DNA from: Pseudomonadota bacterium
GTDB lineage: Bacteria > Pseudomonadota > Alphaproteobacteria > Rickettsiales > UBA1997
Length of the DNA stretch: 59,723 nucleotides
Assembly (NCBI GenBank): GCA_040384945.1
Contig: JAZKII010000013.1
Coordinates: 1-59,723 of the forward strand
Direction: 5' to 3'
Positions 8,116-34,986 of the stretch are shown here, one piece after another (within the stretch, counting starts at the first letter, position 1; each line of letters starts with the position of its first letter). The notes beneath the pieces were generated by a model that had not been told where the DNA came from, ran no database searches, and saw only the letters and a program-made list of their open reading frames with translations. A program made the position numbers and the translations under genes.

Positions 8116-10560
8116 TTATTTCCCTCCCACTGTTATTGTGTTATTCTGAAATAAAGGATCTCTGGTTAAAGGCATGGCTTTTGGTTCAGAAATTGCGCCA
8201 TTTGGAATTTTGGTTTTAGCCAGATCAAGAAGATATTTGGTATCAAGATCTTTCAATCTCTTTTCTAATATTTCACAAATCTGGGTTTCACCTTTATTCT
8301 TATCTATACCTTGAGCTACCATTTCCTTCCTTATTTCTGCCAGCTTTTCCGGGGTAGTAAGATTTAATTTTATCGCCGACTGAATTATAAATTTATCATT
8401 TAAATCTTTGATCGATTTATCGCATAATTTTTTCTTATCTGCTGCTGATCTTTCTTGACGAAATACGGCTAAATTTTCCGCAAAAGGTTTGGTGCTATCT
8501 TGAACTGCACTAAAGAGTAAAAACCGATCCAAAGCTTCTTTTTTGGCATCACTATTTACATCATATAAAATCTCAAAAAACTTCTCCTTGCCACCATTAC
8601 CCAAAATTTGTGACATTGATTGCGTTGACGGGTTACCAACTTCATCTTTGACCTTGAATTGCAGACCGCCAAATAACGCATCTAATGTCTCAGAATTAGC
8701 ATTGGAAATAAACTCTACTAACTTTGCATCCAGATTAGCTTCTTTAAGCGTAGCCATTCTTCTATCAGAAAATGCGTTGATTCGCTTTTCAAGTCCGGTA
8801 TGATGTCCTTTTTCAAATCCTTTGAACACCTCCTCTAAAGCCTTATGTTGGCTTACTTCATAAGCTGAAATTTTTTGCCATTGCGTCATTTCGGCATCAG
8901 CACGAAATAATGAATATACGCCAAAAATCATTAATGGAGCTATTGGTGAAAATTGCAGAGGAGCTGCTGCACCAAGCGCATTTTGTACCAAATCATTATC
9001 GGTTGCGAAATCAAATATTTCACAAAGATCACTGACTATCGGCATTTTCTCAAAAAATAATTCTATGCCATCATCAATTCTAAAAGCTTCCGCAATTTTA
9101 CCAAAGGGACCAAGAACATCGCTGGTAGCCATAGCGCCCAAACCTTCACCTAAAGTTTTACCGGCATCAAATAAAGGCCCGATTAATTCCATAAAGGGAT
9201 CGATATAGCTAAATACATGGCCGGCAATTGAGAATGCTCCAAGCGGCGTGAGCAATAAAAACACCTGCATACAACGATATTTCCACAATCTGTCATCTTC
9301 ATCAACATGCTTCTGTAAACCTGTGAGCATTGTATCATTCATGTCGTTGAGCTTTTTATTAAAAGCTTCGAATTCGGCTTTAGTCGCAGTATTTTCTACT
9401 TTAATTTCATCAGTAATCAGCTTCTGCATTTTTTGGAAAGTTGCCTGATCCATTACATCATCACTTTCAGACAAAGCACTATTTACCTTATTCAAAACCT
9501 TAAGATAAAAACTGGCATCTTGCGCATTAGGTCCAGCCTTCCACAGCATGTTGGCAATCAGCTCATTTCTTCTGGTCAAAAAATCTTTATATTTCTGGCT
9601 ATCTGATGCTTTAGAGCTACTGAGAACACCGCGTCCTGCCCAGTTTGTTAGTTTGTGAACTGAATCACCAAAACTTTCAGCAAGGTTACTGGCTCTGTGC
9701 CAAGCCTTACTCCTGGTTTTAATCCCCGCTCTTTCTTGCGGCGTTAAATCTTCACGACCTTCTTCAAGAAAAACTTTGAGCCGGTTATCATTAACTTTTA
9801 TATCATCGAGAACACTAATCCGACTATCAAAAACAATATTACGATAGGCTCTTGGCGGCATTGAAGTATGAACCACCGGGTAATCACGATATTTAACCCT
9901 ATCAATCTCAGTCTGACTGCCACCTACAAAACTGTAGGGATTTAGCCCAACCCCTGCTTCACCATCACCATAACCATGATAAGAGCCGACACTAGTTCTG
10001 CCACTGGCGTAATCTCCATTTTCATTAAATAATATAGATGTTTTTAAAGCATGTTGAGGAACTCCTCCCGGCCCGCCTATCTGATTTCCATCTTCATCAA
10101 CAAATGGCATATTGTTGCCCATTTGAGTCATCAAATTACCCAGCTTAACCTGCCCCGGTTTTAACTCAAATCTTCTGATTTCATATTCCTGACGTTTAAC
10201 ATTTGTCCAGCATCTGATATTATCACTTCTTTCATCAAAAATTTTCTTGGCAATTTCAAGTTGTTTTGCAATTGCCTTTGCGTTTGCTTCATTTGATTCC
10301 TTGGCTCCATCACCACCACATTTTTTAACAAAATTATCCCGCAATTTTCCCCTGATGAGATCAAGATGTTCTTTTTGATAAAGCTCCGGAATTTTATATA
10401 ACTGACCATTTCTCTTCTGATTCCTATCTTCATCTGTTACAACAACTGCGTGCTCTTGTTCAAAAAATTGTTTTAGCTTTGCATCAACCAATTCTGCTAC
10501 AGAAGTTGGTTTATTTGCGGCAGCATTTGGTGGTGAAAGTGGTTGTATTGGTTTAGTCAT
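8116..10560 (-). CDS. hypothetical protein (814 aa ORFan with central hydrophobic segments)
   Basis: Long ORF with ATG start. No family recognised and no signal peptide. Central hydrophobic stretches are ...CMQVFLLLTPLGAFSIAGHVFSYI... and ...APLQFSPIAPLMIFGVYSLF..., flanked by Lys/Glu-rich, probably helical regions. Confidence 0.6.
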   Translation of the reverse strand: MTKPIQPLSPPNAAANKPTSVAELVDAKLKQFFEQEHAVVVTDEDRNQKRNGQLYKIPELYQKEHLDLIRGKLRDNFVKKCGGDGAKESNEANAKAIAKQLEIAKKIFDERSDNIRCWTNVKRQEYEIRRFELKPGQVKLGNLMTQMGNNMPFVDEDGNQIGGPGGVPQHALKTSILFNENGDYASGRTSVGSYHGYGDGEAGVGLNPYSFVGGSQTEIDRVKYRDYPVVHTSMPPRAYRNIVFDSRISVLDDIKVNDNRLKVFLEEGREDLTPQERAGIKTRSKAWHRASNLAESFGDSVHKLTNWAGRGVLSSSKASDSQKYKDFLTRRNELIANMLWKAGPNAQDASFYLKVLNKVNSALSESDDVMDQATFQKMQKLITDEIKVENTATKAEFEAFNKKLNDMNDTMLTGLQKHVDEDDRLWKYRCMQVFLLLTPLGAFSIAGHVFSYIDPFMELIGPLFDAGKTLGEGLGAMATSDVLGPFGKIAEAFRIDDGIELFFEKMPIVSDLCEIFDFATDNDLVQNALGAAAPLQFSPIAPLMIFGVYSLFRADAEMTQWQKISAYEVSQHKALEEVFKGFEKGHHTGLEKRINAFSDRRMATLKEANLDAKLVEFISNANSETLDALFGGLQFKVKDEVGNPSTQSMSQILGNGGKEKFFEILYDVNSDAKKEALDRFLLFSAVQDSTKPFAENLAVFRQERSAADKKKLCDKSIKDLNDKFIIQSAIKLNLTTPEKLAEIRKEMVAQGIDKNKGETQICEILEKRLKDLDTKYLLDLAKTKIPNGAISEPKAMPLTRDPLFQNNTITVGGK

Positions 10561-11241: not shown

Positions 11242-11994
11242 ATGGCTGTAACATTACCTTATTCAAATCCAATTGGTTCTAGTTACAGCCATTTAACCCC
11301 CGAAAGACCTCTTCTTACCCGCGAAGAAATCGCCGCAAACAAAAAGCTCGCAAGATATCATCTCACAATAACGCAATCTTTAAATGATGAACAATTTAGA
11401 GCAATGGGCGTTCATACTGGATTCAAACAAGAAGAAAGCGCATTTACCCAAGCATTAGAAGTTGGGGGGAAAGTTTCTGGATTAATTCCAGTTCCAGTTG
11501 CAAGTCAAATAGCAGAACTAGCTTTCATGAGCGCACATTTTGCATCGGGCAAAGTTGAAGATCACATTAATCAGGTTAAGTCTGATAAAATTTTAGCAAT
11601 AAATCCTACTCACGATCCGGTTGAATGGAAAAAATTCACTGAAGAATTAGCAATAAAATTAACCAGTGAAAAACAAGATGAAATTAAAGCCTGCGAAGCT
11701 CCGGCTAAAGGAGATCATTTTGCTCAACGTATTAAAAACATCCTTTATCCTAACCGAACTCCGAAAGATTCCTCATTAGCCGTAAAATCTTTAGCTGTTA
11801 GAGATTGCTCAAAAATGATTCAAACAATTTTAAATAAAGAATTGGATGAAAATGCTCCAGGAATTGAAAATGAAAATAGCAGAAAATCATTAGTTTCAGA
11901 GCTAGTATCCTCAACGAAAGCGCCTTCCAAACATATTGAACCAGAAGGAGCAAAAACTGTTTTTGCCTTCAATCATTTAGTTACTTCGCATTAA
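11242..11994 (+). CDS. hypothetical protein (250 aa)
   Basis: ORF starting 10 nt after the pal stop. No signal peptide or recognisable domain, and not CpoB/YbgF-like. Its 3' end overlaps the convergent 1098-aa gene by 14 nt. Confidence 0.5.
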   Translation: MAVTLPYSNPIGSSYSHLTPERPLLTREEIAANKKLARYHLTITQSLNDEQFRAMGVHTGFKQEESAFTQALEVGGKVSGLIPVPVASQIAELAFMSAHFASGKVEDHINQVKSDKILAINPTHDPVEWKKFTEELAIKLTSEKQDEIKACEAPAKGDHFAQRIKNILYPNRTPKDSSLAVKSLAVRDCSKMIQTILNKELDENAPGIENENSRKSLVSELVSSTKAPSKHIEPEGAKTVFAFNHLVTSH

Positions 11995-14900
11995 CCCACA
12001 TTTTCGCAATTTTCTCGCCTAAAGAATTTTGCTCACAGCGATTATGTAAATGCCCAAAATCCAATTTATCCATATTCTGGTCTTGATTGGCACAAGCATA
12101 AAAATATTCCTTCTCACCTTTTTCATTCACTCTTTTTTGCAAACATTGCGAACAAACACCTTTCAACATACATTGCATTGGTGCGTTCAAACTAGTGATG
12201 GCAATAGGTGCTTCACTAATTGAAGGCACTAAATTTTGATGACGCAACTTGGCAATTTCATGCATCATTTGATCATTTCCAATCGTAAAAATACGATCGA
12301 TTTTTTTAGGATTTTTCAAAAAGTAATCTGCTAAAACTTCAATAACCGAGCCATTTTCTTCATCAATTGCTATCTGCAAAACATCACAGGATTTTTGCAT
12401 TTTTTCCAAACGCACAATCTCCGATTTTTTGCGATAACCGGCAAAGAAAATCACTTCGCAACCATTTGTTTTACAAGCTTGCGCAATCGCAGTTAAAGGC
12501 TGATTTCCGCGGCCACCACCAACTAAAACTACAGTTTCATTTTTTGGAATTTCTGTTGGCGATCCGCTTGGACCCATAAAAACACAAGGCTCGCCCACTT
12601 TAAAATTTTTAATCAAATTAGTTGAAGCTCCAACTTCAACTACAACACCGCTAATAATTCCATTTTCACGATCAATCGAAAGTGCAGTTAATGGAACACC
12701 TTCCATAACTTGTAATTGATCGCCAATTTTCTGCGCCAAAGCGTGATAATTTTGTAACCTAAAAATATGCCCGATTTCAGTTTGTTTTGCCAACAGCGGA
12801 GCGCGCACCGACACTTCTAACACATAGTCAGAAAGCCTTTCGATTTTTTCGATTTTTACTAAAAATTCAGAATTTATTTTATCTAAAAAACCCTCTGCAA
12901 AATTCGCCGGTTTTTGTGCCAGAATTTTCGTAATTTGATCATGTCCTAATTTTGCACTCGCCATCGCCTTCACAACATTTCCTTCAAAATTCGGATGCAA
13001 ATCACCAAAAAAACTCACAGCTTTTCCTGAATTTTTATCAATTTTCGTAATCACGCTAAACTGCTGCGGACGCGCGCTGTGTGTGGCATCAAAATGTCTT
13101 TCCTTTTCATCAATTTCGGAAAAATATTTTCCATCCAATTTAAAATCCAAACCATCTTCCAAAGCCGGCGAAATATTTGGCGTAGTTCCTGCCGCAATCA
13201 AAAGCGCTTTGCATTTGAAATTTTTATCATCGGCGCATTTCAGGTTTTTAATATGACCAAATTCATCAATCTCAACTTCCAGCGGCGTAATATTTTCGAC
13301 AAATTCTACACCTTCTTCAAAAGCTTTATTCAACTCTTGATGATTCAGCCTGTAAGCTGGAGAATCTTGCAATTTTTTGCGGTAAATAATTTTTGCGCCA
13401 CCCCATTTTTTCAGCAATTCAAAAGCATTATTATTTTTTAATTCTTCAGCATGTTGCAAAAATTCTGCTGCAATAATTTTTTCTTCTTCATTTAAAATTG
13501 CCCAAATTTTTTCTTTGCCGATTGCCGCAACTTTCTTGGCAAATTTTTTAATCTGCACTAAATAATAAGCCTGCGCTTCACAAGCTGTATCGACAGCCGT
13601 AAGCCCCGCGCCAATTACCAAAATCGGCATACGAACTTGCAGATTGGTAAATAATTCTTCTTTGAAAGCGCCGGTTAATTGCAGCGACATCAAAAAATCT
13701 GAAGCTGAACGCACGCCTTTGGCAAAGTTATTTTTTAAATTAATGATGTTGGGCCGACCTGCGCCAATACAAAGTGCAACATGATCAAAACCGTAATTCT
13801 CAAAAGCAGTTTTATCAGTAATTGACGAACCAAAACGAATGCCGCCAAACATGCGGAAATTTTTTCGGCGCTCTAAAAGCAAGCGAATAACTTTTAAGAA
13901 ATTTTTGTCAAAACGCACCGTAATTCCATATTCCGCAACGCCGCCAAAGCCATGAATCAAGCGGCTTGAAAGCGGTTCATAAATTTCATCTAAATATTTG
14001 ATCGGCTTAAATTTTTGACGATTTCCAAATTCATCGATTCCAGAAATTTGTGAATTTAATGGCTCAATTTTTAAACCATCAATTGCTACAATTTCATGAC
14101 CGTCATTTAGCAAATGATGCGCTAAAGTATAGCCTGCAGGCCCGAGTCCAGCGATCAAGATTTTTTTACCTGTCTTTTTTTGCGGCAAATTTTTAGCAAT
14201 ATTTAACGGATTCCAGCGCGTTAAAAGTGAATAAATTTCAAAGCCAAACGGCAGAGCTAAAACATCTTTTAAAGTACGCGTTTCAATTTGCGGAATATCA
14301 ACAGGATCTTGTTTTTGGTAAATGCACGATTTCATGCAATCATTGCAAATACGGTGTCCGGTGCCAGCAATCATTGGATTATCAACCACAGCAACCGCAA
14401 AAGCAGCGAGTGAAAAACCTTCAGATTTTAACAAATTCATTTCCGAGATTTTTTCATCTAGCGGACAACCATGAAGTTCAACACCGAGAGGATCAATTTT
14501 TAAATTATTACCGGAATTTGCCGGCGTATGTACAGTGTGTGGTGGTGCTTTAATTCCGGTTTTACAGGAATCTTTTTCCTGCTTGTGGCAGAAAATGCAA
14601 TAATTGGCCTCAGCCAACACACGATTGAGTCCAAAGCCATCATCAGTTAAATTAAAACCATCTCTTTTTGATTTTTCATGAGTTGGATTTAACAGGTTTT
14701 GGTGATCGATTTTTTTCGGCAAAATAAAAAGCGCACCATTTTTGTGAAGACGGCGACCTTGCTCTGAATAAAGCGCCCAAACTGAATAAAGCGTTAATTC
14801 TTCTAAATTTTTTTCTTGAGAAATTTCTTCGGCGAGTTGTTTTTCCAGATCATCAACATCATCAAAAGGAATATTTAATTTCTTGAGAATGCTTATCCCA

Positions 14901-15277
14901 TCAATATCCGGCGCAATTGTGGTAATTTTTTTTGCCACTTCCCGCTGCACAAATTCGCGGCGAATTTGATAGATTTTCTTTAAATCTTCGTGACGTTTTT
15001 TTAAGTCGGAATTTTCTTTTTCAATGTTGAAAAGCTCCGCAATAAAATCTTCTAGAATTCGCGCGACATCAATTAAAACCTGTGATTTCTGTGGATTGGT
15101 CATAAATTCCAGACCACTTTCCACTTTTTTTAATGTCAAAAAACGCGCCGCAATTTCCGGGTTTTTTTCGTTTAAATATTCTTCAAATTTTTTGTTTAAT
15201 TTTTCCAGCCCTTCACGCTCGTAAAGATCTTTAAAAGTAACGCCGAATGTGGGTTTAAGAAAATTTTCTGAGGGCAT
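11981..15277 (-). CDS. large fusion oxidoreductase: GltD-like (Fe-S + two FAD/NAD(P) Rossmann folds) fused to a PyrK/ferredoxin-reductase-like C-terminal module
   Basis: 1098 aa. Cys clusters CIFCHKQEKDSC...CPLDE...CNDCMKSC. Rossmann folds KILIAGLGPAGYTLAHHL and ILVIGAGLTAVDTA. C-terminal FRLQNYH, VLVGGGRGNQPL and CX..CSQC..C-type cluster. Matches my recollection of the Rickettsia protein annotated as bifunctional glutamate synthase subunit beta/2-polyprenylphenol hydroxylase. Confidence 0.7.
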   Translation of the reverse strand: MPSENFLKPTFGVTFKDLYEREGLEKLNKKFEEYLNEKNPEIAARFLTLKKVESGLEFMTNPQKSQVLIDVARILEDFIAELFNIEKENSDLKKRHEDLKKIYQIRREFVQREVAKKITTIAPDIDGISILKKLNIPFDDVDDLEKQLAEEISQEKNLEELTLYSVWALYSEQGRRLHKNGALFILPKKIDHQNLLNPTHEKSKRDGFNLTDDGFGLNRVLAEANYCIFCHKQEKDSCKTGIKAPPHTVHTPANSGNNLKIDPLGVELHGCPLDEKISEMNLLKSEGFSLAAFAVAVVDNPMIAGTGHRICNDCMKSCIYQKQDPVDIPQIETRTLKDVLALPFGFEIYSLLTRWNPLNIAKNLPQKKTGKKILIAGLGPAGYTLAHHLLNDGHEIVAIDGLKIEPLNSQISGIDEFGNRQKFKPIKYLDEIYEPLSSRLIHGFGGVAEYGITVRFDKNFLKVIRLLLERRKNFRMFGGIRFGSSITDKTAFENYGFDHVALCIGAGRPNIINLKNNFAKGVRSASDFLMSLQLTGAFKEELFTNLQVRMPILVIGAGLTAVDTACEAQAYYLVQIKKFAKKVAAIGKEKIWAILNEEEKIIAAEFLQHAEELKNNNAFELLKKWGGAKIIYRKKLQDSPAYRLNHQELNKAFEEGVEFVENITPLEVEIDEFGHIKNLKCADDKNFKCKALLIAAGTTPNISPALEDGLDFKLDGKYFSEIDEKERHFDATHSARPQQFSVITKIDKNSGKAVSFFGDLHPNFEGNVVKAMASAKLGHDQITKILAQKPANFAEGFLDKINSEFLVKIEKIERLSDYVLEVSVRAPLLAKQTEIGHIFRLQNYHALAQKIGDQLQVMEGVPLTALSIDRENGIISGVVVEVGASTNLIKNFKVGEPCVFMGPSGSPTEIPKNETVVLVGGGRGNQPLTAIAQACKTNGCEVIFFAGYRKKSEIVRLEKMQKSCDVLQIAIDEENGSVIEVLADYFLKNPKKIDRIFTIGNDQMMHEIAKLRHQNLVPSISEAPIAITSLNAPMQCMLKGVCSQCLQKRVNEKGEKEYFYACANQDQNMDKLDFGHLHNRCEQNSLGEKIAKMWVNAK

Positions 15278-18574: not shown

Positions 18575-19065
18575 AAGTTGCCCGGCTTCTGTTGACAGGC
18601 GCCGGGCGGCCCCGATAAAATCACTTATACTAAGCAGCTAATGCCACTGGAGTAAATTCGAAGTTATCATTAGCAAAGTTGTCGTTTGCATTTACTGTTT
18701 TGAACGGATATTGCGTAAGGCTTGCGCCTCTAGCAACCGGCAGTTTCTCAACCGGGTAAAATCTAGTCCTTTATCGCATGTCGAAAGCTGTGTCACCCCC
18801 CAGGTGCCTAGAACATTCTTTGCCTGCGGCAAAAGAAGATTTTGTAGCGTGGGATGGCCCGCTCCGCCGTCGCCCTTTGGGCTATGGCGGACAGGCAGTC
18901 TTCGCCCTAACGATCTCCGTCTAACAGTCCAGGACAAGCCTGGCCTGCCAGCCGAAGCCCGCAAGGGCGAAGGCTGGAGGTGCTGGGTACTGCCCCCAGG
19001 TCCATGTACGTTTATTACGAAAAGAGTTTATCACCATATTTGGCGAACGAATCCGCCAACGGGAA
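18575..19065 (-). ncRNA. ssrA: tmRNA (ssrA), circularly permuted two-piece type; ends approximate
   Basis: The minus strand shows the tmRNA 5' end GGGGGUGACACAGCUUUCGACAUGCG (from ~18800). It also carries the tag frame GCA AAC GAC AAC TTT GCT AAT GAT AAC TTC GAA TTT ACT CCA GTG GCA TTA GCT GCT TAG, which reads ANDNFANDNFEFTPVALAA-stop (18689->18630). Upstream in the gene is the arm CTGGG-GGCAGTA-CCCAG followed by CACCTCC-A (18999->18975). That 3' strand pairs perfectly with GGGGGTG, including a G3:U70 pair. A TATAAT box lies at 19079->19074. The terminal hairpin is GCCCGGC...GCCGGGC (18607->18580). Confidence 0.85.
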
Positions 19066-19207
19066 TTAATTTAATTATAAAAAAATTTTAAACAAGCTTG
19101 AGGGTGGTTTATTGTAATAAAAATCTGGTATGGCTCAAATCCTTATGAATCACACCGTGAAGATGGGGTGACAAATTTAGAGTTAGTTGGATGAACTATA
19201 ATCATTG

Positions 19208-19442: not shown

Positions 19443-21047
19443 ATGTCTAACGCCAACCTATCTTCCTGCGAATCAAATCCGACCAACAGAAAAAAAGTTA
19501 TTATTCTGGGATCAGGCCCCAACCGTATCGGGCAAGGAATTGAATTTGATTATACCTGCGTTCACGCCGCTTTTGCTTTTAAGGCAGTTGGCATTGAAGC
19601 GATTATGGTAAATTGCAATCCCGAAACAGTGTCAACAGATTATGACACTTCTGATCGTCTTTATTTTGAACCGCTCACCGCTGAAGATACAATCGAGTTG
19701 ATCAAAAAAGAAATGAGCAACGGTGAATTGCTTGGTGTAAACGTACAGTTCGGCGGCCAAACGCCTCTAAGCTTGGCGAAGTTCTTGCAAGATGAAAATA
19801 TTCCAATTATCGGCACTTCTCCCGACATGATTGATTTAGCTGAAGATCGCGATCGCTTCAAAAAACTTTTACAAAAACTGGAATTAAACCAACCCCAAAA
19901 TTACATCGCTTATTCTGCAAAACAGGTAATCGATCAAGTTAATGAAGTGGGATTTCCGGTTGTAGTTCGCCCTTCTTACGTCCTTGGTGGACGCGGCATG
20001 GCGATTGTTTATGATGAAGCTTATTTGATGAAATATTTAGCCGAATATTCTGATGTTTTTGAATCTGGCCCGCTTCTTCTCGATAAATTTTTAACCGATG
20101 CAATCGAAGTTGACGTTGATGCTTTATGCGACGGCGAAGAAGTTTTTGTTGCCGGAATTATGCAACATATCGAAGAAGCCGGAATTCACTCAGGCGACTC
20201 AGCCTGTTCAATTCCGCCATATTCACTTTCACAAAAAATGATTGATGAAGTAAAAGCTGCAACCGTGAAAATGGCTTTGGCTCTAAATGTAAAAGGCTTG
20301 ATGAACGTGCAATATGCCATTCAAAATGACAGGCTTTTTGTTTTAGAAGTTAACCCGCGCGCCTCACGCACCGTGCCTTTCGTGGCTAAAGCAACTAACA
20401 CGCCAATCGCAAAATATGCCTCATTAATTATGATCGGAAAAAAACTTTCCGAGTTTAATTTGAAAGAAAAAAAGTTGGATTATTTCTCAGTAAAAGAAGT
20501 GGTTTTCCCTTTCGCGCGCTTTTCAAATACCGATACAATTTTAGGACCGGAAATGAAATCAACCGGCGAAGTTATGGGAATTGACAAAACTTTCCCACTG
20601 GCTTTCGCCAAGGCACAAATGGCTGCAGGCGTGAAACTTTTAACTGAAGGTTTGGTGTTTTTGTCAGTTAAAGATTCCGATAAAAAATATTTACCTGAGC
20701 TGGCGCAAAAATTAATTAATGTCGGATTTAAAATTGTCGCAACTCGCGGAACCGCGAAATTCCTGGCTGAAAATGATATTGCGGTAACAATCGTAAATAA
20801 AATTACCGAAGATAAACCGCATGTTGTTGATATGATTGATCGCAAAGAAATTGCACTAGTTATCAACACAACTGAAGGCGCGCAAGCAACTAAAGACAGC
20901 TTCTCAATTCGCAGAACTTCTTTGATGCGCGGCGTGAATTATTCAACCACAATTTCTGGCGCTAGAGCTTTAATTGACGCACTTCAAGCCTATAAAGACC
21001 AAGGCTGCAAATTTGAAGTTCGCGCTTTGCAAGATATGAATTCTTAA
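19443..21047 (+). CDS. carB: carbamoyl-phosphate synthase large subunit, C-terminal half only (second ATP-grasp + allosteric/MGS-like domain)
   Basis: 534 aa. Collinear with E. coli CarB from about residue 550 to the end, as I recall the sequence (KVIILGSGPNRIGQGIEFDY, MVNCNPETVSTDYDTSDRLYFEPLT, GPEMKSTGEVMG). No N-terminal half lies upstream; the tmRNA and a repeat are there instead. Confidence 0.9.
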   Translation: MSNANLSSCESNPTNRKKVIILGSGPNRIGQGIEFDYTCVHAAFAFKAVGIEAIMVNCNPETVSTDYDTSDRLYFEPLTAEDTIELIKKEMSNGELLGVNVQFGGQTPLSLAKFLQDENIPIIGTSPDMIDLAEDRDRFKKLLQKLELNQPQNYIAYSAKQVIDQVNEVGFPVVVRPSYVLGGRGMAIVYDEAYLMKYLAEYSDVFESGPLLLDKFLTDAIEVDVDALCDGEEVFVAGIMQHIEEAGIHSGDSACSIPPYSLSQKMIDEVKAATVKMALALNVKGLMNVQYAIQNDRLFVLEVNPRASRTVPFVAKATNTPIAKYASLIMIGKKLSEFNLKEKKLDYFSVKEVVFPFARFSNTDTILGPEMKSTGEVMGIDKTFPLAFAKAQMAAGVKLLTEGLVFLSVKDSDKKYLPELAQKLINVGFKIVATRGTAKFLAENDIAVTIVNKITEDKPHVVDMIDRKEIALVINTTEGAQATKDSFSIRRTSLMRGVNYSTTISGARALIDALQAYKDQGCKFEVRALQDMNS

Positions 21048-21340
21048 TGTCTTTTTTACAAAAAAATTCGGGGCATTTTTTACTTTATGTAAAAGTTACC
21101 CCGAATTCTGCGAAGAATAAAATTGGTGAAAAAGTTATTGATGAAAAAGGTCAGGAATATTTGAAGATTAATGTAACTGCGGTTCCTGAAGATGGTAAAG
21201 CCAATGAAGAAGTAATAAAATTTTTGGCAAAAATTTTAAAAATTCCTAAATCGAAAATTGAAATTTTGCGCGGCGAAACTGCGCGGATAAAAGTAGTAAA
21301 AATTTGTGCAGAAATTGATGAAAATTTTCTAAAAAATTAA
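21047..21340 (+). CDS. DUF167 (YggU) family protein
   Basis: 97 aa. ...VKVTPNSAKNKI...VTAVPEDGKANEEVIKFLAK... pattern. ATG overlaps the carB stop (TAATG). Confidence 0.75.
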   Translation: MSFLQKNSGHFLLYVKVTPNSAKNKIGEKVIDEKGQEYLKINVTAVPEDGKANEEVIKFLAKILKIPKSKIEILRGETARIKVVKICAEIDENFLKN

Positions 21341-22161
21341 ACCTCAATTGTCACTATAACCGGACAATGATCTGAAGCCTTTTCCTGATCTCGCACACCA
21401 CGATCTTCAATCGCAGTTGCAATAATTTTATCCGCTGCTTGTGGCGAAGTTAAAAGATAATCAATTCGCATTCCTTTATTATGCTGCCATGAACCACCGC
21501 GATAATCCCACCAGGAAAATGCCTGGCTGCGCGGGTTTTTAGCGCGATAAGAATCAACAATTCCCATATTTAAAATCGAACGAAATTTTTTGCGCTCATC
21601 AGGATGAAAACAAACTGTTCCATTTAAACTTACAGGATCAAAAACATCAATTTCCTCAACCGCAACATTATAATCACCACCAAAAATCTGCATTTCATCA
21701 AGCTCGAGAAGCTTAGAAAAATGAGACTTCAAGCGCTCAAGAAACTTCATTTTATAAATAAATTTCTGGCTGTTTTCGCGCGCTTCATCAAGCAATAAAT
21801 CTCCACCACCATTGGGTACATAAATTGAAGCAATACGAATTGCTGAATTTCCGACTGAAATTACACCTTCAATATAACGCGCTTGCTCATCAACTTCTCC
21901 ATCCAACATTGGCAAGGCTTTAACTACATCTTCAATTTTAAATTTTGAAAGAATTGCCACGCCATTATAACTTTTTTGTCCTACAACTGCGGCGTTATAA
22001 CCGGCATCAAATATGGCTTCATAAGGAAATTCCGTTTCCACACATTTTAATTCCTGCAATAAAACTACATCAGGATTGGACATTTTTAACCACTCCAAAA
22101 GCCTTGGCAGACGGGCTTTTACAGAGTTTACATTGAAACTAGCAATTTTGATTTGAGGCAT
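21337..22161 (-). CDS. xthA: exodeoxyribonuclease III (AP endonuclease)
   Basis: 274 aa. IASFNVNS, LLQELK and C-terminal SDHCPV motifs of the ExoIII/EEP family. Confidence 0.9.
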   Translation of the reverse strand: MPQIKIASFNVNSVKARLPRLLEWLKMSNPDVVLLQELKCVETEFPYEAIFDAGYNAAVVGQKSYNGVAILSKFKIEDVVKALPMLDGEVDEQARYIEGVISVGNSAIRIASIYVPNGGGDLLLDEARENSQKFIYKMKFLERLKSHFSKLLELDEMQIFGGDYNVAVEEIDVFDPVSLNGTVCFHPDERKKFRSILNMGIVDSYRAKNPRSQAFSWWDYRGGSWQHNKGMRIDYLLTSPQAADKIIATAIEDRGVRDQEKASDHCPVIVTIEV

Positions 22162-22179: not shown

Positions 22180-24018
22180 CTACGAAATAACGCAACACCC
22201 TCTTGAATTAGCTGCCGATACTGCTGCAGACTCAACCGAAGAACTTGGATGTCTTTCTCTCTCTTGCTCGATCATGAGGTTAATAGTTGCTCTAGCATTA
22301 GCTATTCTCTCTGGATTATTGGAGTGGTCATCAGGCTCTAGCTCATTTAGATAACCTTCAATCGCTTCAAGAAAGGTTTCAACCTTCACTTCCAGAGAAA
22401 CACAATGACTCAATTCTTCTTTTGCGATATTTCCATAGAGTGCATAAAAATCTTGCGAATTCTCATCCATCGGAACAATTCTGATGCCATGCATTTTATC
22501 TCTATCCTCAATCTGTAATATCTCTGGATTTTCAGCAAAACTCTGACTATTACCCTCTGTAACTTTAATACCATTATCTAGAAAAATTTTCTTTAGAACC
22601 TTGATAACACTACCTCTTCCCATAAGCAATCCATCCTCTACTTCTTTCGGAGTCCAGTGAAAACTAAAGCCACTCTCTTTGTGACGAGGTAAAATTTCAC
22701 TCTCATAATTTGGCAATAGTTTCATCAATTGCAAAGTTGGTAATTCAGTAGTTTGGCATCCAGCCGCCATTACATGAAAAACCTTTCCATCTTCATCCAA
22801 AGATTGCAAAGGCCACAACATAATTGAACCTGGCTTCAGAGAAAAATCTTTGACTAATTTCAAAATGCTACCTTCATTTCTGTAGCCAGAATATATAGGA
22901 TTTAATTGCAGAATCGAATCGAGATTCTCTGCGGAAATATTGAATTTATATTCGATTACATCGCCTAACTCGCCCGGCTTTATCTCCAAAAAATCTTTTC
23001 CACTTAATTTCTTGAATCCCAATTGCCTTGACTGAAACTTCAACTGCTCAACAAAATAGCCCGCCTCAATAGAGCTTATAAAACTATGATTATGATCTGG
23101 GTAATAAGATCTGGACTTCTCATAAGTCTCAGTCGAAACAAAAAATGAAACTGAATTATCAGCAAGATTTGAAAGTGCTCGAGGATATTTATTCAGATCC
23201 TTATTCTGAACGCCTTCAGTAATAGAACTCACAAATTGATACCATTCACTTCTGTCATCATGAATATTTCTGCGATCCTGCTGATCATTTAAATATTTAT
23301 ATTCAGGATCTAAAATCTTTAACTCAAACTCATTAGCGCCAGCCTGCAATAAAACATCAACCATCTCCTCATCTCTTCTGTCATGTGCAATAACTAATGC
23401 CGATTTTCCTTCTCTGTCTAATTCATCAATATCAACTCCCGCTTTCAGTAGCGCTTTGATAACCTTGCTTGCGTTACTTTTTTTTTGCTCGCGCAGAGAT
23501 TCTTTTGCCTCATCCATAAATTCTTTCTCATCTTCTTCTTTAAATCTTGTCCAAACGCTAATACTACTACCCTCATCACGCACAATCTTTTCAGGAACAT
23601 CTTCTTCTTTAAACGTTACCTGCTCTCTTTCTATAGTATATGTTCTCACTTGCTCGCCCACAATTTTTCTCTCTCGCTTTGCATCCTGCATTCTCTCGTC
23701 TGCATAATGGTAAATCAGGCTATTTACTCTACCAAATAGCTCCATCAAAGCATTGCGCCCTTGAAGATTTTTAATATCGAGATTTGCACCTTGTTCTAGA
23801 AGCTGTTCTACATATTTCAAATGCTGCAATTGCACAATTGGTAAATGACCTATTTGGTAATCCGCACCAAATTCCCGACAAGCTCTAATCAGCTTAGTAT
23901 CACCATTTTCATCGCATTCATTTATATCGCCTACAACCTCTCCGGTAGAGGAAATCAATTTATTTATAAGAAATTTTCTGTCTCTATCTATTAAATAATC
24001 ATCCGCATATCTAGACAT
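22180..24018 (-). CDS. ankyrin-repeat protein with C-terminal CaaX box (candidate host-prenylated effector)
   Basis: The ORF track starts at TTG 24030; ATG at 24018 is preferred (MSRYADDY...). ANK-like repeats: GDTKLIRACREFG..., LLEQGANLDIKNLQGRNALMEL, LLKAGVDIDELDREGKSALVIAHDRRDEEMVDVLLQAGAN. A ~350-aa C-terminal region is unassigned. The last codons TGT TGC GTT ATT TCG TAG encode C-C-V-I-S-stop. Confidence 0.8.
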   Translation of the reverse strand: MSRYADDYLIDRDRKFLINKLISSTGEVVGDINECDENGDTKLIRACREFGADYQIGHLPIVQLQHLKYVEQLLEQGANLDIKNLQGRNALMELFGRVNSLIYHYADERMQDAKRERKIVGEQVRTYTIEREQVTFKEEDVPEKIVRDEGSSISVWTRFKEEDEKEFMDEAKESLREQKKSNASKVIKALLKAGVDIDELDREGKSALVIAHDRRDEEMVDVLLQAGANEFELKILDPEYKYLNDQQDRRNIHDDRSEWYQFVSSITEGVQNKDLNKYPRALSNLADNSVSFFVSTETYEKSRSYYPDHNHSFISSIEAGYFVEQLKFQSRQLGFKKLSGKDFLEIKPGELGDVIEYKFNISAENLDSILQLNPIYSGYRNEGSILKLVKDFSLKPGSIMLWPLQSLDEDGKVFHVMAAGCQTTELPTLQLMKLLPNYESEILPRHKESGFSFHWTPKEVEDGLLMGRGSVIKVLKKIFLDNGIKVTEGNSQSFAENPEILQIEDRDKMHGIRIVPMDENSQDFYALYGNIAKEELSHCVSLEVKVETFLEAIEGYLNELEPDDHSNNPERIANARATINLMIEQERERHPSSSVESAAVSAANSRGCCVIS

Positions 24019-24026
24019 AACTTTTC

Positions 24027-24473
24027 TCAAATAATTTCTTTCATGAAGTGAAAGCCGCGAATGTGAAAGTCTTCTTTAAAATAGAGAGAATGTGATTTTT
24101 TATTTTCGGTGAATGAATCAAGAACCATCTTTTCACAATTTAATTTTTTGCCGATTTTTTCGATTTCGCGCAGGATTTTTTTACCAATTCCAAATCCTCT
24201 TTTGTCTTCATCAACAATAAAACTTGAAACCTGAATATAACGGCCGCAATAAAGCATACGTAGCACCCAATAACCGGCAACTCCGATTATTTCATCATTC
24301 AAAAAAGCACCGATCATTTTAAAATCATTCATCGCAATCATTTCAGAAATCTGGCTTTGAAAATTTTCCAAAGTCATTTCGCGATATCTTTGCTTGATAA
24401 TCGAATAAGCCAGCAGCATTTCATCCAAATTATTCAGCTCTTTAATCGTGATTTCTTCCGCAATTTTTTCCAT
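24027..24473 (-). CDS. GNAT-family N-acetyltransferase
   Basis: About 148 aa from ATG 24473 (the track starts one codon earlier at TTG). Acetyl-CoA binding motif ...RGFGIGKKILREIEKIGKK.... Confidence 0.8.
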   Translation of the reverse strand: MEKIAEEITIKELNNLDEMLLAYSIIKQRYREMTLENFQSQISEMIAMNDFKMIGAFLNDEIIGVAGYWVLRMLYCGRYIQVSSFIVDEDKRGFGIGKKILREIEKIGKKLNCEKMVLDSFTENKKSHSLYFKEDFHIRGFHFMKEII

Positions 24474-24477
24474 CAAA

Positions 24478-25890
24478 CTAAACTGTTTTTAATTGATCTG
24501 CCAAAGCTGCAGCCCAATAAGTTACTGTTCCGGCGCCGGTACAAAATATGATGTCTCCGGAAGAAATTTGTGGTTTCACAATTTTCGCCAAATCTTTTTC
24601 GGAAGTTAATTTTATCACATTTTTATGACCGGCTTTAGAAATTCCCGTCACTAAATCATCTTGCGTTGCGCCTATAATTGGCGCTTGTCCTGCTGAATAA
24701 ACATCAGCGACGATTACACAATCTGCATCAGAAAATGCGCCACAAAATTCGTTAAATAAATCATGCACGCGCGAATATTTATGTGGTTGGAAAACGCAGA
24801 TAATTTTATGCTTTCCAGCCAATGAACGCGCAGCTTTAAGCGTTGCGGCAATTTCAGTTGGGTGATGGCCATAATCATCAATAATTGCTACACCTTCATA
24901 TTCACCAACTTTGGTGAAACGACGTTTTACACCGTTAAAAGTGTGAAGCGCTTCTTTGATTTTTTCTTCTTTGATTCCTAAAAAATCACCAATCGCAACT
25001 GCCACTAAAGCATTGCTGGCATTGTGTTCGCCATAAATCGGCATTTGGATATCTTGGATTTCGCGACCATCTTTAAACTCAACATCGAACTTAATTCCGC
25101 TGACATCCATTTTAATATTTTTGGCCATCAAATCAGCTTTTTTGCTGATGGAATAAGTAACCAGATTTTTCTTTTCTGATTTTAATTTTTCGTAAATTTT
25201 TTCAACTTCCGGACTGTCAATACAAACTACACAAATTCCCTCATTTGGAATTTGTTTTACATATCTTTCAAAACAGTCTTTTTGCTTGTCAAAACTTCCG
25301 GCATAACCGCTAAATTCAAGATGTTCCGGTTCAATGTTGGTAACCGCGCCAATAAAGCTTGGAAGCTCAACAAAACTGGCATCAGATTCATCAGATTCTG
25401 CAACTAAATATTGGCCTTTTCCGATTTTAGAATTGCTGCCGAAATAATGAATTACGCCGCCATTAATCACCGTTGGATCAAGCCCGCCAATTTCAAGCAT
25501 TAAAGAAACCATGCCGGTAGTGCTGGTTTTGCCATGAGTTCCGGCGATTGTAATGCCTTTATATTCTTTCATAATCAGGCCCAAAAGCTGTGCGCGCGTA
25601 ATCACGGGAATGTTTCTTTCCTGCGCGACTAAAATTTCCGGATTTTCACTTTTGATGATTGAAGTCTGTACAATCAAAGAAACATCGTCAGAAATATTTT
25701 CTCTTTTATGGCCAACAAAATATTCGGCACCTTTATCGCGCAATTTTGGGGTAAGATAATTTTCTGATAAATCTGAGCCTTGAACCGGAATATTTAATTC
25801 GCGCAAAACAAACGCCAGCGCGCTCATGCCGATGCCGCCAAGACCAATAAAGTGGACTTTGCTTTGTTTTTTTAGATCCTGAAAATTCAT
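24478..25890 (-). CDS. murC: UDP-N-acetylmuramate--L-alanine ligase
   Basis: 470 aa. N-terminal GLGGIGMSALA fold and Mur ligase P-loop GTHGKTST. Confidence 0.9.
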   Translation of the reverse strand: MNFQDLKKQSKVHFIGLGGIGMSALAFVLRELNIPVQGSDLSENYLTPKLRDKGAEYFVGHKRENISDDVSLIVQTSIIKSENPEILVAQERNIPVITRAQLLGLIMKEYKGITIAGTHGKTSTTGMVSLMLEIGGLDPTVINGGVIHYFGSNSKIGKGQYLVAESDESDASFVELPSFIGAVTNIEPEHLEFSGYAGSFDKQKDCFERYVKQIPNEGICVVCIDSPEVEKIYEKLKSEKKNLVTYSISKKADLMAKNIKMDVSGIKFDVEFKDGREIQDIQMPIYGEHNASNALVAVAIGDFLGIKEEKIKEALHTFNGVKRRFTKVGEYEGVAIIDDYGHHPTEIAATLKAARSLAGKHKIICVFQPHKYSRVHDLFNEFCGAFSDADCVIVADVYSAGQAPIIGATQDDLVTGISKAGHKNVIKLTSEKDLAKIVKPQISSGDIIFCTGAGTVTYWAAALADQLKTV

Positions 25891-28199: not shown

Positions 28200-30122
28200 T
28201 TAATTAGTATAACGAACAATCACAATTCCAGATCCTCCCGCTGCTGCTCCTCCTCCAGGACCACCTGCGGCAGCACCGCCGCCACCACCCGTGTTAGCAG
28301 TTCCAGCAACTGCAGCAGAATTTGAAGCAGCACCGCCTCCAGCACCGCCGCCGCCGGAGCCACCGGCTGCTATATTATTTGCACCCTGATTTGAACCGCC
28401 ACCGCCACCAGCATAAGTTAGAGTTGTTCCACTAATTGAATTTGTAGCACCATCACCTCCGGCACCTCCCAACTCAGAAGCTGCACTACCATTTCCGAAT
28501 CCCCTTACACCAGCACCGCCAGCACCGCCGCCGCCGCCGCCGCCATCCCAGCCAACACCCATACCACCACCACCAACATTACCTGAAGAAACTCCACCCA
28601 CCCCGGCAATTACAGCTCCTCCAGTTGTCATGTTATAATCACGACTAGCACCACCACCAGAACCACCTGCCATTGGCAATACATTTGTTGCACCACCACT
28701 ACCTCCTCCATAAGCAATTATCGCAGTATCAAAAGATGAATTGCCTCCACTACTTCCTGCTCCACTACTTCCACCACCAGCACCACCGGCACCTACTGTG
28801 ATTGCATAAGATTGCGCAGTTAGAGAATAAGAAGAATTATAAACAAATCCGCCACCGCCTCCGCCTCCGCCAAACCAACTACCACCACCACCACCAGCTA
28901 CCACCAATATTTGTGCGTTAGTATTTTGACTGCAGGTAAGTGTTTGAGTTGATGTAAATACATGAATTATTTCTCCAGCAACAGTATACATCGTGGTGTT
29001 ACCTCCACTACATTTAGGATTTACACAAACTCCACCAAGTAAATAATATCCGGTGTCACAGGCACACATAGTCGGGGAAGCTGAAAGGACAAGGGTTCCA
29101 GCTGAACAGCCTAATGTTACAGTTCCAACATAACCTGTTCCGCAAGTCCCGGTTACACCGCTTGCTCCTTGTGTTACTATCGATGGAGAAGAAAGACCAA
29201 CTACACTCGCTGTTGAACAATCCATTGTGCAGCCATCTGTTGTCACAATACCATTAATGCAAGAGCCACTCGCATTTGAAGTTCTATTTACTTTAGTAGA
29301 GTATTTTTTACCCAAATAATCTTCCGTGGTTTTTCTTTCATCAGATTTTAAAGCTCTGGTGAAAATAGCAATTTCTCCGATTTCGCCAGTGTAACCTTTA
29401 CCAATAGCCAGTGTTGTTATATTTGACAGTTTTGTAGTATCAGAGTTTTGAGCAGCGAGAATGCCGTTAATGTAAGTTTTTTTACCATTTACGGAATCAG
29501 AAACAAAAGTGAAAATTCTTGGAGTATCAGTTGATGAACTGTAAGTACTTATGCTCGAAGTATAAGCATTCCCAGTTCCCTGAGAATGGGAAATTTGAGC
29601 ATCGGCTGTGTAACCTAATAATAAGGTTTGGTTCGCTGTTGATACTGTACTATCACCAATAAAATACCCAGCTGAGGCGCTTTGGCGCTTTTCTAAAACT
29701 ACAATCGTGTAATCGGTGTTATTTAAAAAACTTGCGTCAGAAACTTGTAAATAATTGGCAGCACTACCACTGAACTTTACAGAGTGAATATAATTAATCG
29801 TATTGGAATAAGTTGGACCAGTCCCTACTGCAACTATAGTAGATTTATTAACCGCATTCTTTTGGTCATACCAAGTTGTTACAGCATCTCCAGTAGAAGT
29901 TTCTGCATCTTTAAAACTTTCTTCTAAGCTACTTTCTAACCAGATAGCATTGTCCTGAATTCCAGCAATTGGAGAGGTTTTAGTTAAATTTTGAGCTGCG
30001 GTAATCTTGGATTTTTTTACTAACCCAGTAGCTCCCATTATACCGGCAATTAAAATTCCGATGATTACGATTACAGCGGAAAGTTCGATTAGGGTGAAAG
30101 CAGAAGGCGTTTTTTTAATCAT
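28200..30122 (-). CDS. prepilin-type N-terminal domain protein with LamG-like domain, Cys-rich spacer and polyglycine-rich C-terminal domain
   Basis: 640 aa. N-terminus MIKKTPSA/FTLIELSAVIVIIGILIAGI is a class-III signal (Glu at +5). The LamG-like region ends ...GYTGEIGEIAIFTRALKSDERKTTEDYLGKKY. A ~100-aa segment contains 11 Cys. The C-terminal ~240 aa is dominated by Gly runs and ends ...GGSGIVIVRYTN. Confidence 0.75.
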   Translation of the reverse strand: MIKKTPSAFTLIELSAVIVIIGILIAGIMGATGLVKKSKITAAQNLTKTSPIAGIQDNAIWLESSLEESFKDAETSTGDAVTTWYDQKNAVNKSTIVAVGTGPTYSNTINYIHSVKFSGSAANYLQVSDASFLNNTDYTIVVLEKRQSASAGYFIGDSTVSTANQTLLLGYTADAQISHSQGTGNAYTSSISTYSSSTDTPRIFTFVSDSVNGKKTYINGILAAQNSDTTKLSNITTLAIGKGYTGEIGEIAIFTRALKSDERKTTEDYLGKKYSTKVNRTSNASGSCINGIVTTDGCTMDCSTASVVGLSSPSIVTQGASGVTGTCGTGYVGTVTLGCSAGTLVLSASPTMCACDTGYYLLGGVCVNPKCSGGNTTMYTVAGEIIHVFTSTQTLTCSQNTNAQILVVAGGGGGSWFGGGGGGGGFVYNSSYSLTAQSYAITVGAGGAGGGSSGAGSSGGNSSFDTAIIAYGGGSGGATNVLPMAGGSGGGASRDYNMTTGGAVIAGVGGVSSGNVGGGGMGVGWDGGGGGGGAGGAGVRGFGNGSAASELGGAGGDGATNSISGTTLTYAGGGGGSNQGANNIAAGGSGGGGAGGGAASNSAAVAGTANTGGGGGAAAGGPGGGAAAGGSGIVIVRYTN

Positions 30123-34119: not shown

Positions 34120-34986
34120 ATGAATTCCAAAAAAGCCTATTCTTTATTTGAAACTTCATTAGCCATAGTAATTCTCGCCATTGTGATTGGAGGCACTATA
34201 CAAGGCAGTCGCCTGGTTGCTCTGTATCGCCTGCAAACTGCGCAAAGCCTAACTCAAAGTTCACCGGTTAGTGCAATGAAAAATCTTGTTACCTGGCTGG
34301 AAGCAACATCGGAAACCAGTCTTGATGATGAAGAAGAAATAGATGGCTCTAAGATCACCAATTGGTATGATCTAAACCAGCAAACAAATGTAAAAAATAA
34401 TGCGGTAAATAATTCTGCCACCGTAAGCGACCATCCAACTTATAAAAGCAAATGCATCAACAACCTTCCCTGCCTTCAGTTTAACGGCACTTCGCAATAT
34501 ATGGATATAACACAAAATGCCGGTTATACTAATGAATTAACCATATTTGTGGTGTTTCTTTCATCCAATGATGCTTCTGACTTCCATACCATTATCGGAG
34601 CAGATGGCACATGGAGCAGCGGCATCAGTTTTCGGTTTAAGCGTTCTACCGCTGTAAATTATCAAACTCCGGATTTCAATAATGACACCTCAACTGGCGC
34701 ACTTTTAGCCAATAAAAATTATATAGCTGCTGTAGTCGATGGCTCTAGCACTATTACCAATTACCTAAATGGAACTGCGGGCACAACCACAACCGTACTG
34801 CCCGCCAACCGCCTGACAAAACGCTTATCTGCGCTTAACATTGCATCTTCAACAATGGGCACTCGCAGTAATTTCTTCGACGGCAATATTGGCGAAATAA
34901 TAATTTTTGATCGTGCTTTGAAAAATTATGAAAGACAAAATGTTGAAAAATATCTAAGCCAAAAATGGCAGATTCCGCTTTCTTAA
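34120..34986 (+). CDS. pseudopilin-like protein with LamG-like domain (paralog of the 640-aa protein N-terminal half)
   Basis: 288 aa. N-terminus MNSKKA/YSLFETSLAIVILAIVIGG (Glu at +5 if cleaved after Ala). Shares ...AQ.LT..SP......WLE.., ..WYD.. and ...G.IGEI.IF.RALK..ER...E.YL..K... with the 28200..30122 product. Confidence 0.65.
   Translation: MNSKKAYSLFETSLAIVILAIVIGGTIQGSRLVALYRLQTAQSLTQSSPVSAMKNLVTWLEATSETSLDDEEEIDGSKITNWYDLNQQTNVKNNAVNNSATVSDHPTYKSKCINNLPCLQFNGTSQYMDITQNAGYTNELTIFVVFLSSNDASDFHTIIGADGTWSSGISFRFKRSTAVNYQTPDFNNDTSTGALLANKNYIAAVVDGSSTITNYLNGTAGTTTTVLPANRLTKRLSALNIASSTMGTRSNFFDGNIGEIIIFDRALKNYERQNVEKYLSQKWQIPLS

Follow-up and report, generated by a model that had tools for sequence, protein, structure and literature searches.

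An ankyrin-repeat protein with a putative Ras2-type lipidation signal in an uncultured bacterium labelled Rickettsiales

The gene and its setting

Contig JAZKII010000013.1 of an uncultured bacterium labelled Rickettsiales, a stretch of 59,723 nucleotides that was analyzed in full and is referred to here as the window, encodes a 612-residue protein with ankyrin (ANK) repeats in its N-terminal part and the residues CCVIS at its extreme C-terminus. As the last four of these resemble the CaaX box recognized by eukaryotic farnesyltransferase (FTase), the protein, termed the ANK-CaaX protein below, was evaluated as a candidate effector lipidated by a host. Its gene occupies positions 22180–24018 on the minus strand, an interval that a preliminary description had given without a strand and that corresponds exactly to the gene with its stop codon. 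The coding sequence runs from 24018 to 22183 and comprises 612 codons followed by TAG at 22180–22182, as delimited by a scan for open reading frames (ORFs) and by synteny in six further contigs (L001–L006). The longest mechanical ORF (22180–24030, minus strand) starts at TTG and encodes 616 residues. The ATG at 24018 (MSRYADDY...) is likely the true start since it matches the N-termini of homologs and the database gene call P0001.

On the same strand the gene is flanked by murC (24478–25890) and a gene for a GNAT acetyltransferase (24027–24476, 8-nt gap) on one side and by xth (21337–22161, 18-nt gap) on the other. The order murC-GNAT-X-xth-carB, X being the ANK-CaaX gene, was kept in all six contigs L001–L006, which stem from metagenome-assembled genomes (MAGs). 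The content of guanine and cytosine was 38% in the window and 37% in the gene. The window is that of an ordinary alphaproteobacterial chromosome, encoding Kdo transferase, RecJ, DprA, IlvD, MetK and GltX among others, and a permuted two-piece alphaproteobacterial transfer-messenger RNA at 18576–19095 (minus strand, 134 bits) backs the class assignment.

Architecture of the protein

From the N- to the C-terminus the protein consists of ANK repeats with a 70-residue insertion, a domain of 354 residues, a disordered Ser/Ala linker and the CCVIS ending; it has no Sec signal. An AlphaFold2 model of the full-length protein, computed with 19 homologs, reached a predicted local distance difference test score (pLDDT) of 82 and a predicted template modelling score (pTM) of 0.72. 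Pfam matches above gathering threshold were Ank_2 (33.9 bits, threshold 27.3) and Ank_4 (31.7 bits, threshold 22.7) at residues 186–233 and Ank (27.8 bits, threshold 21.1) at residues 67–88. Inspection by eye together with the predicted helices gave two full and two partial repeats (roughly residues 38–115 and 186–236), so that the at least three ANK-like repeats first described were about right, the stack being split by the insertion.

Repeats A and B (residues 38–115; positions 23674–23907, minus strand, as for all parts of the gene) contain the Pfam Ank match and predicted helices at residues 42–48, 60–75, 90–93 and 101–115; A has an extended loop and B is partial. The insertion (residues 116–185; 23464–23673) is predicted to form a beta-hairpin, another strand and a long charged helix (strands 121–129, 132–137 and 153–159, helix 161–192) and varies more than any other part of the protein, as judged from alignment gaps and divergence. 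Repeats C and D (residues 186–236; 23311–23463), which account for the Ank_2 and Ank_4 matches, consist of the second half of one repeat and one full repeat and end in a conserved GANEF(E/D)LK motif. The uncharacterized alpha/beta domain that follows (residues 237–590; 22249–23310) was present in no domain library and is presumed to hold the effector activity. It is followed by the Ser/Ala-rich linker PSSSVESAAVSAANSRG (residues 591–607; 22198–22248) and by Cys-Cys-Val-Ile-Ser (residues 608–612; 22183–22197), of which Cys609-Val-Ile-Ser constitutes the CaaX box according to sequence, family conservation and literature. The C-terminus thereby reads ...EQERERH-PSSSVESAAVSAANSRG-CCVIS and then TAG, the C-terminal peptide of the tail being ...SAANSRGCCVIS. 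Both the CCVIS ending with its second Cys directly upstream and the flexibility of the linker had been noted beforehand and were borne out, the latter by a pLDDT below 50 for residues 592–612, which are predicted to be disordered.

The C-terminal tail across the family

A word-indexed search yielded 20 true homologs, and 100 representative relatives were recovered from 1.84 billion representative proteins with a profile built on the C-terminal domain. An ending of the CaaX type, C-[VTS]-[IL]-[SLP], was found in 17 of 112 family sequences. These endings were CVIS (5), CTIS (4), CSIS (3), CVIL (2), CTIL (1) and CVLP (1), together with CVIS in a 737-residue paralog with multiple ANK repeats. The first residue after the Cys (a1) thus varies between V, T and S, the second (a2) is always I or L and the last (X) is S or L, and P once. 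In 10 of the 17 a second Cys lies upstream, nine times at position -5 and once at -6. In the ANK-CaaX protein itself, CVIS combines a Cys at -4 with a1, a2 and X residues compatible with FTase or geranylgeranyltransferase I (GGTase-I), and a second Cys of the kind found in Ras-type CCaaX signals stands directly before it, giving Cys608-Cys609.

In order to evaluate whether such endings arise by chance, they were set against background. The frequency of Cys was 1.1% and the canonical CaaX ending was unique among the 102 ORFs of at least 60 residues in the window. In a set of 198 ORFs of at least 100 residues, taken from the window and from the retrieved loci, a Cys at -4 outside the family occurred only in proteins ending in CKNK, CYES and CHNN. 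Chance could account for a lone CaaX ending, of which an estimated one or two would be expected in each genome, but, judging from these counts, not for 17 such endings among 112 family members.

In a neighbor-joining tree of the domain, the CaaX forms were scattered across the crown clade and also included the deep members P0037 and P0067. Some sisters without the Cys had kept the rest of the box, namely R-VIL in P0017, R-IIS in P0012 and V-AIS in P0023. Because of these relic endings and the spread over crown and deep branches, the tree suggests an ancestral, selected CaaX motif that was lost repeatedly rather than gained by accident. Taken with the recurrence of the ending and variation that follows enzyme rules, this indicates a motif kept by selection in relatives of the ANK-CaaX protein.

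The gene of the deep member P0067 (contig L009, 10001–11353) encodes a protein without ANK repeats that ends in CSIS, and it is inserted in a histidine-utilization operon (hutH - X - hutU - ... - hutI - arginase-family gene). Another ANK protein is encoded 5 kb downstream of it.

Resemblance of the tail to known lipidation signals

The tail was compared with prenylated C-termini characterized experimentally. CVIS is the natural S-farnesylation box of the human protein ZAP-L, where C899S abolishes membrane localization, and appending CVIS to ZAP-S relocalizes that protein (PMC8568172); the earlier designation of CVIS as an FTase motif accordingly has experimental backing. Yeast Ras2 ends in CCIIS, with farnesyl on the distal Cys and palmitoyl on the one next to it, and transfer of CCIIS onto Yck2 directs it exclusively to the plasma membrane, while SCIIS directs it to internal membranes (PMC2173492; PMC9927470). 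This establishes CC-aliphatic-I-S as the dual-lipidation signal of Ras2 (PMC2173492), in line with the palmitoylation that had been suggested as a possibility for the upstream Cys. Ras2-CIIS was 100% prenylated and PrePS-positive, and a yeast screen with a Ras reporter emphasized an aliphatic a2 (PMC10320760). With the specificity of plant PFT and PGGT1 (PMC3017772) as a further comparison, the aligned tails of the family fit the rules of prenyltransferases: a1 is unconstrained, only I or L stands at a2, and the last residue is S, pointing to FTase, or L, pointing to GGTase-I.

Read against these precedents, the CCVIS tail is a near-copy of a proven eukaryotic code for farnesylation and palmitoylation, one conservative change away from CCIIS and carried on a disordered linker. 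Cys609 is the predicted farnesyl acceptor and Cys608 the predicted palmitoyl acceptor.

Rate of divergence

Divergence from the orthologs in contigs L001 and L002 was evaluated for the ANK-CaaX gene and the genes that flank it. Amino acid identity was 57% and 69%, respectively, for the ANK-CaaX gene and 93–98% for the flanking genes. The ratio of nonsynonymous to synonymous divergence (dN/dS) was 0.46 and 0.34 for the ANK-CaaX gene and 0.02–0.11 for the flanking genes, for which dS was 0.3–0.5. By this measure the gene evolves 4–10 times faster than its neighbors. The N-terminal 226 residues were just 30% identical to the L001 ortholog with dS saturated (1.5), which suggests replacement of the N-terminal module. 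Fast divergence in a fixed genomic slot, quickest in the module that would bind protein, is a pattern expected of host-interaction factors.

The 354-residue domain

Since DARPins and ANK proteins were all that the full-length model matched in a fold search, the C-terminal domain was re-modelled alone. The resulting AlphaFold model, made from 16 sequences, had a pLDDT of 85.9 and a pTM of 0.81. Foldseek found no match to this model in PDB (best E 0.58, template modelling (TM) score at most 0.17) or in BFVD (best E 0.016, TM score 0.10). Profile searches gave none among PDB sequences (E up to 10) or in NCBIfam, Pfam gave none for the domain in all 16 alignment members (E up to 10), and NCBIfam and Pfam gave none for it in ten distant members. 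The domain is an unannotated family of about 100 representative clusters, and its fold is possibly new. It had been described as having no recognizable fold. This holds as far as matches in Pfam, NCBIfam, PDB sequences and folds, and BFVD are concerned, but the domain folds confidently in prediction and has an invariant Cys.

Across the 100 aligned members Pro279, Tyr379, Pro403, Cys421, Gln430 and Glu543 were invariant, and Tyr525 (99%), Ser541 (98%) and His454 (90%, the rest having GHH with the His one column off) were nearly so. Cys421 (codon 22756–22758) lies in an A-G-C-Q motif directly before helix 422–434 and is a candidate catalytic nucleophile; its putative partner is His454 (codon 22657–22659) in the motif F-H-W-x-P. 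Glu543 (codon 22390–22392) lies on a beta-strand in the motif S-L-E-V. Three relatives (P0034, P0054 and P0039) repeat the C-terminal half of the domain in degenerate form; none of the three extra copies has the Cys and two have also lost the His, while Glu543 is retained, a layout that resembles a tandem of enzyme and pseudo-enzyme. This pattern of loss lends modest support to Cys421 and His454 as candidate catalytic residues. An ADP-ribosyltransferase triad of the H-Y-E type (His454, Tyr525, Glu543) was rejected on account of wrong spacing and the lack of a fold match. A papain-like or other known Cys-His hydrolase or deamidase fold was unsupported, as Foldseek searches of PDB and BFVD were without a match. 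Given the confident predicted fold and the invariant Cys, the domain is probably the active part of the protein.

In relatives the domain is joined to N- or C-terminal ANK arrays, to LRR_6, to TPR or to long coiled coils, or it stands alone. The distant member P0092 (contig L011; 1–4139 and 8001–9872) combines the domain with a long coiled coil. The same contig encodes a 1483-residue ANK protein and a 499-residue protein with a weak match to the Legionella Dot/Icm effector family Ceg14, and these neighbors hint that the domain is also present in Legionellales-like bacteria.

Lineage and other features of the window

All relatives within the family are uncultured and metagenomic. The eight matches in genome collections were lake MAGs labelled Rickettsiales, uncultured Alphaproteobacteria, or mislabelled ('Rickettsia typhi', 'Rhizobium sp.'). 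MurC had more than 120 cluster relatives at an identity of at least 71%, named only as 'MAG: Rickettsiales/Alpha-/Proteobacteria bacterium'. According to a preprint, the most abundant freshwater family of Rickettsiales (UBA1997) consists of small rods on cryptophyte algae that have reduced, ANK-enriched genomes (10.1101/2023.01.31.526412). The type IV secretion system (T4SS) is a hallmark of Rickettsiales and is almost fully conserved there, basal extracellular families included (PMC10847448; PMC11077975). Because the T4SS is near-universal in the order according to this literature, export of the ANK-CaaX protein is inferred.

A Pfam scan of the window found no other eukaryote-like genes, the remainder being housekeeping genes, pilus- or type II secretion system (T2SS)-like genes, an autotransporter and two orphan ORFs. 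A prepilin-type N-terminus is fused to a large domain in two proteins, Gly_rich_2 in one and Laminin_G_3 in the other, and a PilB/GspE-type ATPase with MshEN is also encoded (28200–30122, minus strand; 34120–34986 and 45754–47460, plus strand). These could form a type IV pilus or a T2SS-like system with adhesin-like pseudopilins for attachment to a partner cell. The autotransporter (38130–40880, minus strand; 916 residues) has a beta-domain at residues 641–895 and a signal-peptide-like N-terminus. The orphan ORFs, 44–1852 (602 residues) and 8116–10560 (814 residues), both on the minus strand, had no Pfam match at E ≤1e-5 and may encode additional proteins of a lineage-specific or effector-like kind; the former ends in CHNN, with a Cys at -4 in a tail that is not canonical CaaX. 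A further ORF of 1098 residues (11981–15277, minus strand) matched a known family only at residues 372–724 (Pyr_redox_2), and its large N- and C-terminal parts were without a match.

Among the immediate neighbors, the GNAT acetyltransferase (149 residues), syntenic in L001–L005, was 74% identical to its counterpart in L002 at a dS of 1.17, while the other neighbors were roughly 93–98% identical. A diverged or recombined tract may span both this gene and the ANK-CaaX gene, and a functional link between the two is possible. The carB gene seems to be split, as the ORF at 19443–21047 (plus strand, 534 residues) covers the large subunit of carbamoyl-phosphate synthase over its C-terminal half only. 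A separate gene for the N-terminal half (CPSase_L_D1-D3, 550 residues) was seen at 19473–21125 of L009, the contig of a different, more distant family member.

Interpretation and alternatives

The interpretation that we favor, with a probability of about 0.6, is that the ANK-CaaX protein is a translocated effector acting at host membranes, in which Cys609 is farnesylated, Cys608 is probably palmitoylated, the ANK repeats pick the partner and the C-terminal domain acts. Export, most plausibly via the rvh T4SS, would bring the protein into the cytosol of a eukaryotic partner. There the FTase of the host would modify Cys609, followed by removal of VIS by Rce1 and methylation of the new C-terminus by ICMT, as sequence and literature lead one to expect. 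A DHHC palmitoyltransferase of the host would then acylate Cys608, as happens in the CCIIS ending of yeast Ras2, whereupon the protein would leave endomembranes for the plasma membrane or some other specific membrane. For orthologs with one Cys (RCVIS) or with CVIL, a single lipid, farnesyl or geranylgeranyl, would be expected instead. The 17-residue linker, disordered in the structure prediction, would free the folded body above the membrane. There the fast-diverging ANK module may bind a host protein and the 354-residue domain may act on that protein or on another target associated with the membrane close by. The chemistry might involve Cys421, placed at the N-terminus of a helix, with His454 and Glu543, and would then probably be that of a thiol enzyme of the protease, deamidase or transferase type.

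Several observations weigh against this interpretation. The ANK-CaaX gene sits amid housekeeping genes with which it is probably co-transcribed, and no T4SS genes were found in the 59.7-kb window by Pfam scan. The placement in Rickettsiales is plausible but comes from depositors' labels, with the link to UBA1997 as a lead only. The Cys is missing from several orthologs in the same slot (L003, L004, L006-8, P0014, P0016-19), the tail of P0010 is CVLP with Pro as X, and no fold match in PDB or BFVD backs a catalytic role for Cys421. Conservation of the -4 Cys among orthologs, to which the preliminary description had pointed as a check, nevertheless came out in favor of that description, the Cys being kept in orthologs and distant paralogs, even though L003, L004 and P0016-19 lack it. 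Since orthologs without the Cys occupy the same syntenic slot, the lipid anchor, as read from these tails, is dispensable in some lineages and optional for the family. Lipid anchoring is likewise optional for AnkB in Legionella strain Paris (PMC5506055).

The missing secretion genes, the housekeeping cluster and the many family members without the Cys, syntenic orthologs included, would suit a bacterial ANK protein that is not exported at all, in which the Cys serves metal or redox chemistry, a disulfide or stability and the likeness to a CaaX box is coincidental. The label Rickettsiales is in addition no proof of host association, basal lineages being thought to be free-living (10.1101/2023.01.31.526412; PMC11077975). 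We nevertheless regard this explanation as unlikely. It accounts neither for a Cys fixed at -4 with a2 restricted to I or L, X to S or L and a1 left free, nor for a disordered tail set apart from the fold. Also left unexplained are a dN/dS that exceeds that of the neighbors 4- to 10-fold and repeated fusions to eukaryote-type interaction modules.

That the tail is a bacterial secretion or processing signal, read by a T4SS coupling protein or a CPBP/Rce1-like protease rather than by host lipidation enzymes, appears improbable. T4SS signals are mostly C-terminal and disordered, bacteria do encode Rce1-like CPBP proteases, and in the tail small polar residues come after a Glu-rich stretch, EQERERH. 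We know of no bacterial system that reads C-a-a-X, however, and the orthologs without a CaaX box have quite different tails, which argues that the last four residues are not needed for export. In Legionella, mutation of the CaaX Cys of AnkB leaves translocation unaffected (PMC13081727). Secretion and lipidation roles could moreover coexist in the same tail.

An antibacterial toxin sent by the rvh T4SS into competing bacteria is very improbable, for although such use of rvh has been proposed for the basal free-living Mitibacteraceae and Athabascaceae (PMC11077975), the C-terminal domain has an invariant Cys and the small conserved GNAT gene directly upstream could in principle shield the producer, a CaaX box with a Ras-type second Cys would be without function in a bacterial target, the ANK, LRR_6 and TPR fusions indicate eukaryotic targets, and the upstream gene encodes a GNAT acetyltransferase and no recognizable immunity protein. 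All three alternatives account less well than a translocated, host-lipidated effector for the position-specific tail pattern, the second Cys and the fusions to eukaryote-type modules.

A more far-reaching version of the host-lipidated effector can be drawn, which we put forward tentatively and consider doubtful as a whole. The 354-residue domain would be a thiol enzyme of new fold, shared horizontally by freshwater Rickettsiales and Legionellales-like bacteria and injected by an epibiont into algal or protist cells, where the Ras2-type lipid code would bring it to the membrane of the small GTPases of the host and these would be modified. If true, no earlier host-lipidated effector would be known from Rickettsiales, and there would be evidence of effector injection that predates intracellularity.

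Hijacking of host prenylation is already known for effectors of Legionella and Salmonella, and the idea will not surprise specialists; the comparative support is unusually clean. Confirmation would add to the users of this strategy a freshwater lineage that is uncultured, very widespread, with more than 120 MurC clusters at an identity of at least 71%, and perhaps placed at the transition from extracellular to intracellular life, and would make the protein a molecular handle on the manipulation of protist or algal partners. The domain family, with its invariant Cys, about 100 clusters and a fold that is predicted confidently but has no known relative, lends itself well to structural and enzymatic study. 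The tail variants CCVIS, RCVIS, SCVIL and Cys-less in otherwise orthologous proteins in turn constitute a natural experiment on lipid codes and effector localization.

Comparison with known systems

The closest likeness in overall design is to AnkB (Lpg2144/LegAU13) of Legionella pneumophila, which combines ANK repeats with a C-terminal CaaX box, is processed by host FTase, RCE1 and ICMT and is anchored on a host membrane (PMC2916131; PMC13081727). AnkB however contains an F-box and ends in CLVC, whereas the ANK-CaaX protein has a different domain of 354 residues and a Ras2-type CC pair and comes from another bacterial class. No F-box was found in it by Pfam, sequence homology to AnkB does not extend past the ANK repeats, and matches to the Legionella Ank families of NCBIfam (AnkY/H/X/G) were confined to the ANK region at 19–27 bits against cut-offs of 500–1400. 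The prenylated Pel/CMP effectors of Legionella (PelA, C, D, E, H, I and K) have unrelated bodies with a C-terminal CaaX box in common, the Cys of which is needed for localization to the vacuole (PMC13081727). They differ in being gammaproteobacterial Dot/Icm substrates with experimental localization, while the ANK-CaaX protein is known from sequence alone.

With regard to the tail, yeast Ras2 (and H-/N-Ras) offers a pentapeptide, CCIIS, near-identical to CCVIS, a transplantable signal with the first Cys palmitoylated and the second farnesylated. Ras2 is however a eukaryotic GTPase, of which the lipidation signal alone would be mimicked. The Salmonella effector SifA reportedly undergoes host prenylation and S-acylation on neighboring cysteines of its C-terminal CLCCFL (Boucrot 2003; Reinicke 2005). 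In contrast to the ANK-CaaX protein, SifA is a type III secretion system effector, is geranylgeranylated and has another fold. Human ZAP-L (PARP13.1) has the identical tetrapeptide CVIS and is S-farnesylated and localized to endomembranes (PMC8568172), but it is an antiviral protein of the host and lacks the upstream Cys.

Within the same order, RARP-2 of Rickettsia and AnkA of Anaplasma are ANK-repeat proteins exported by the rvh T4SS (PMC11077975). Neither is reported to have a CaaX box, no natural CaaX effector of Rickettsiales was found in the literature searched, and prenylation goes unmentioned in a review of rvh effectors (PMC11077975). By analogy with these systems, the predicted strategy of the ANK-CaaX protein, which by homology belongs to none of these families, is of the AnkB, Pel and SifA type, and both the protein family and the bacterial order are new to it.

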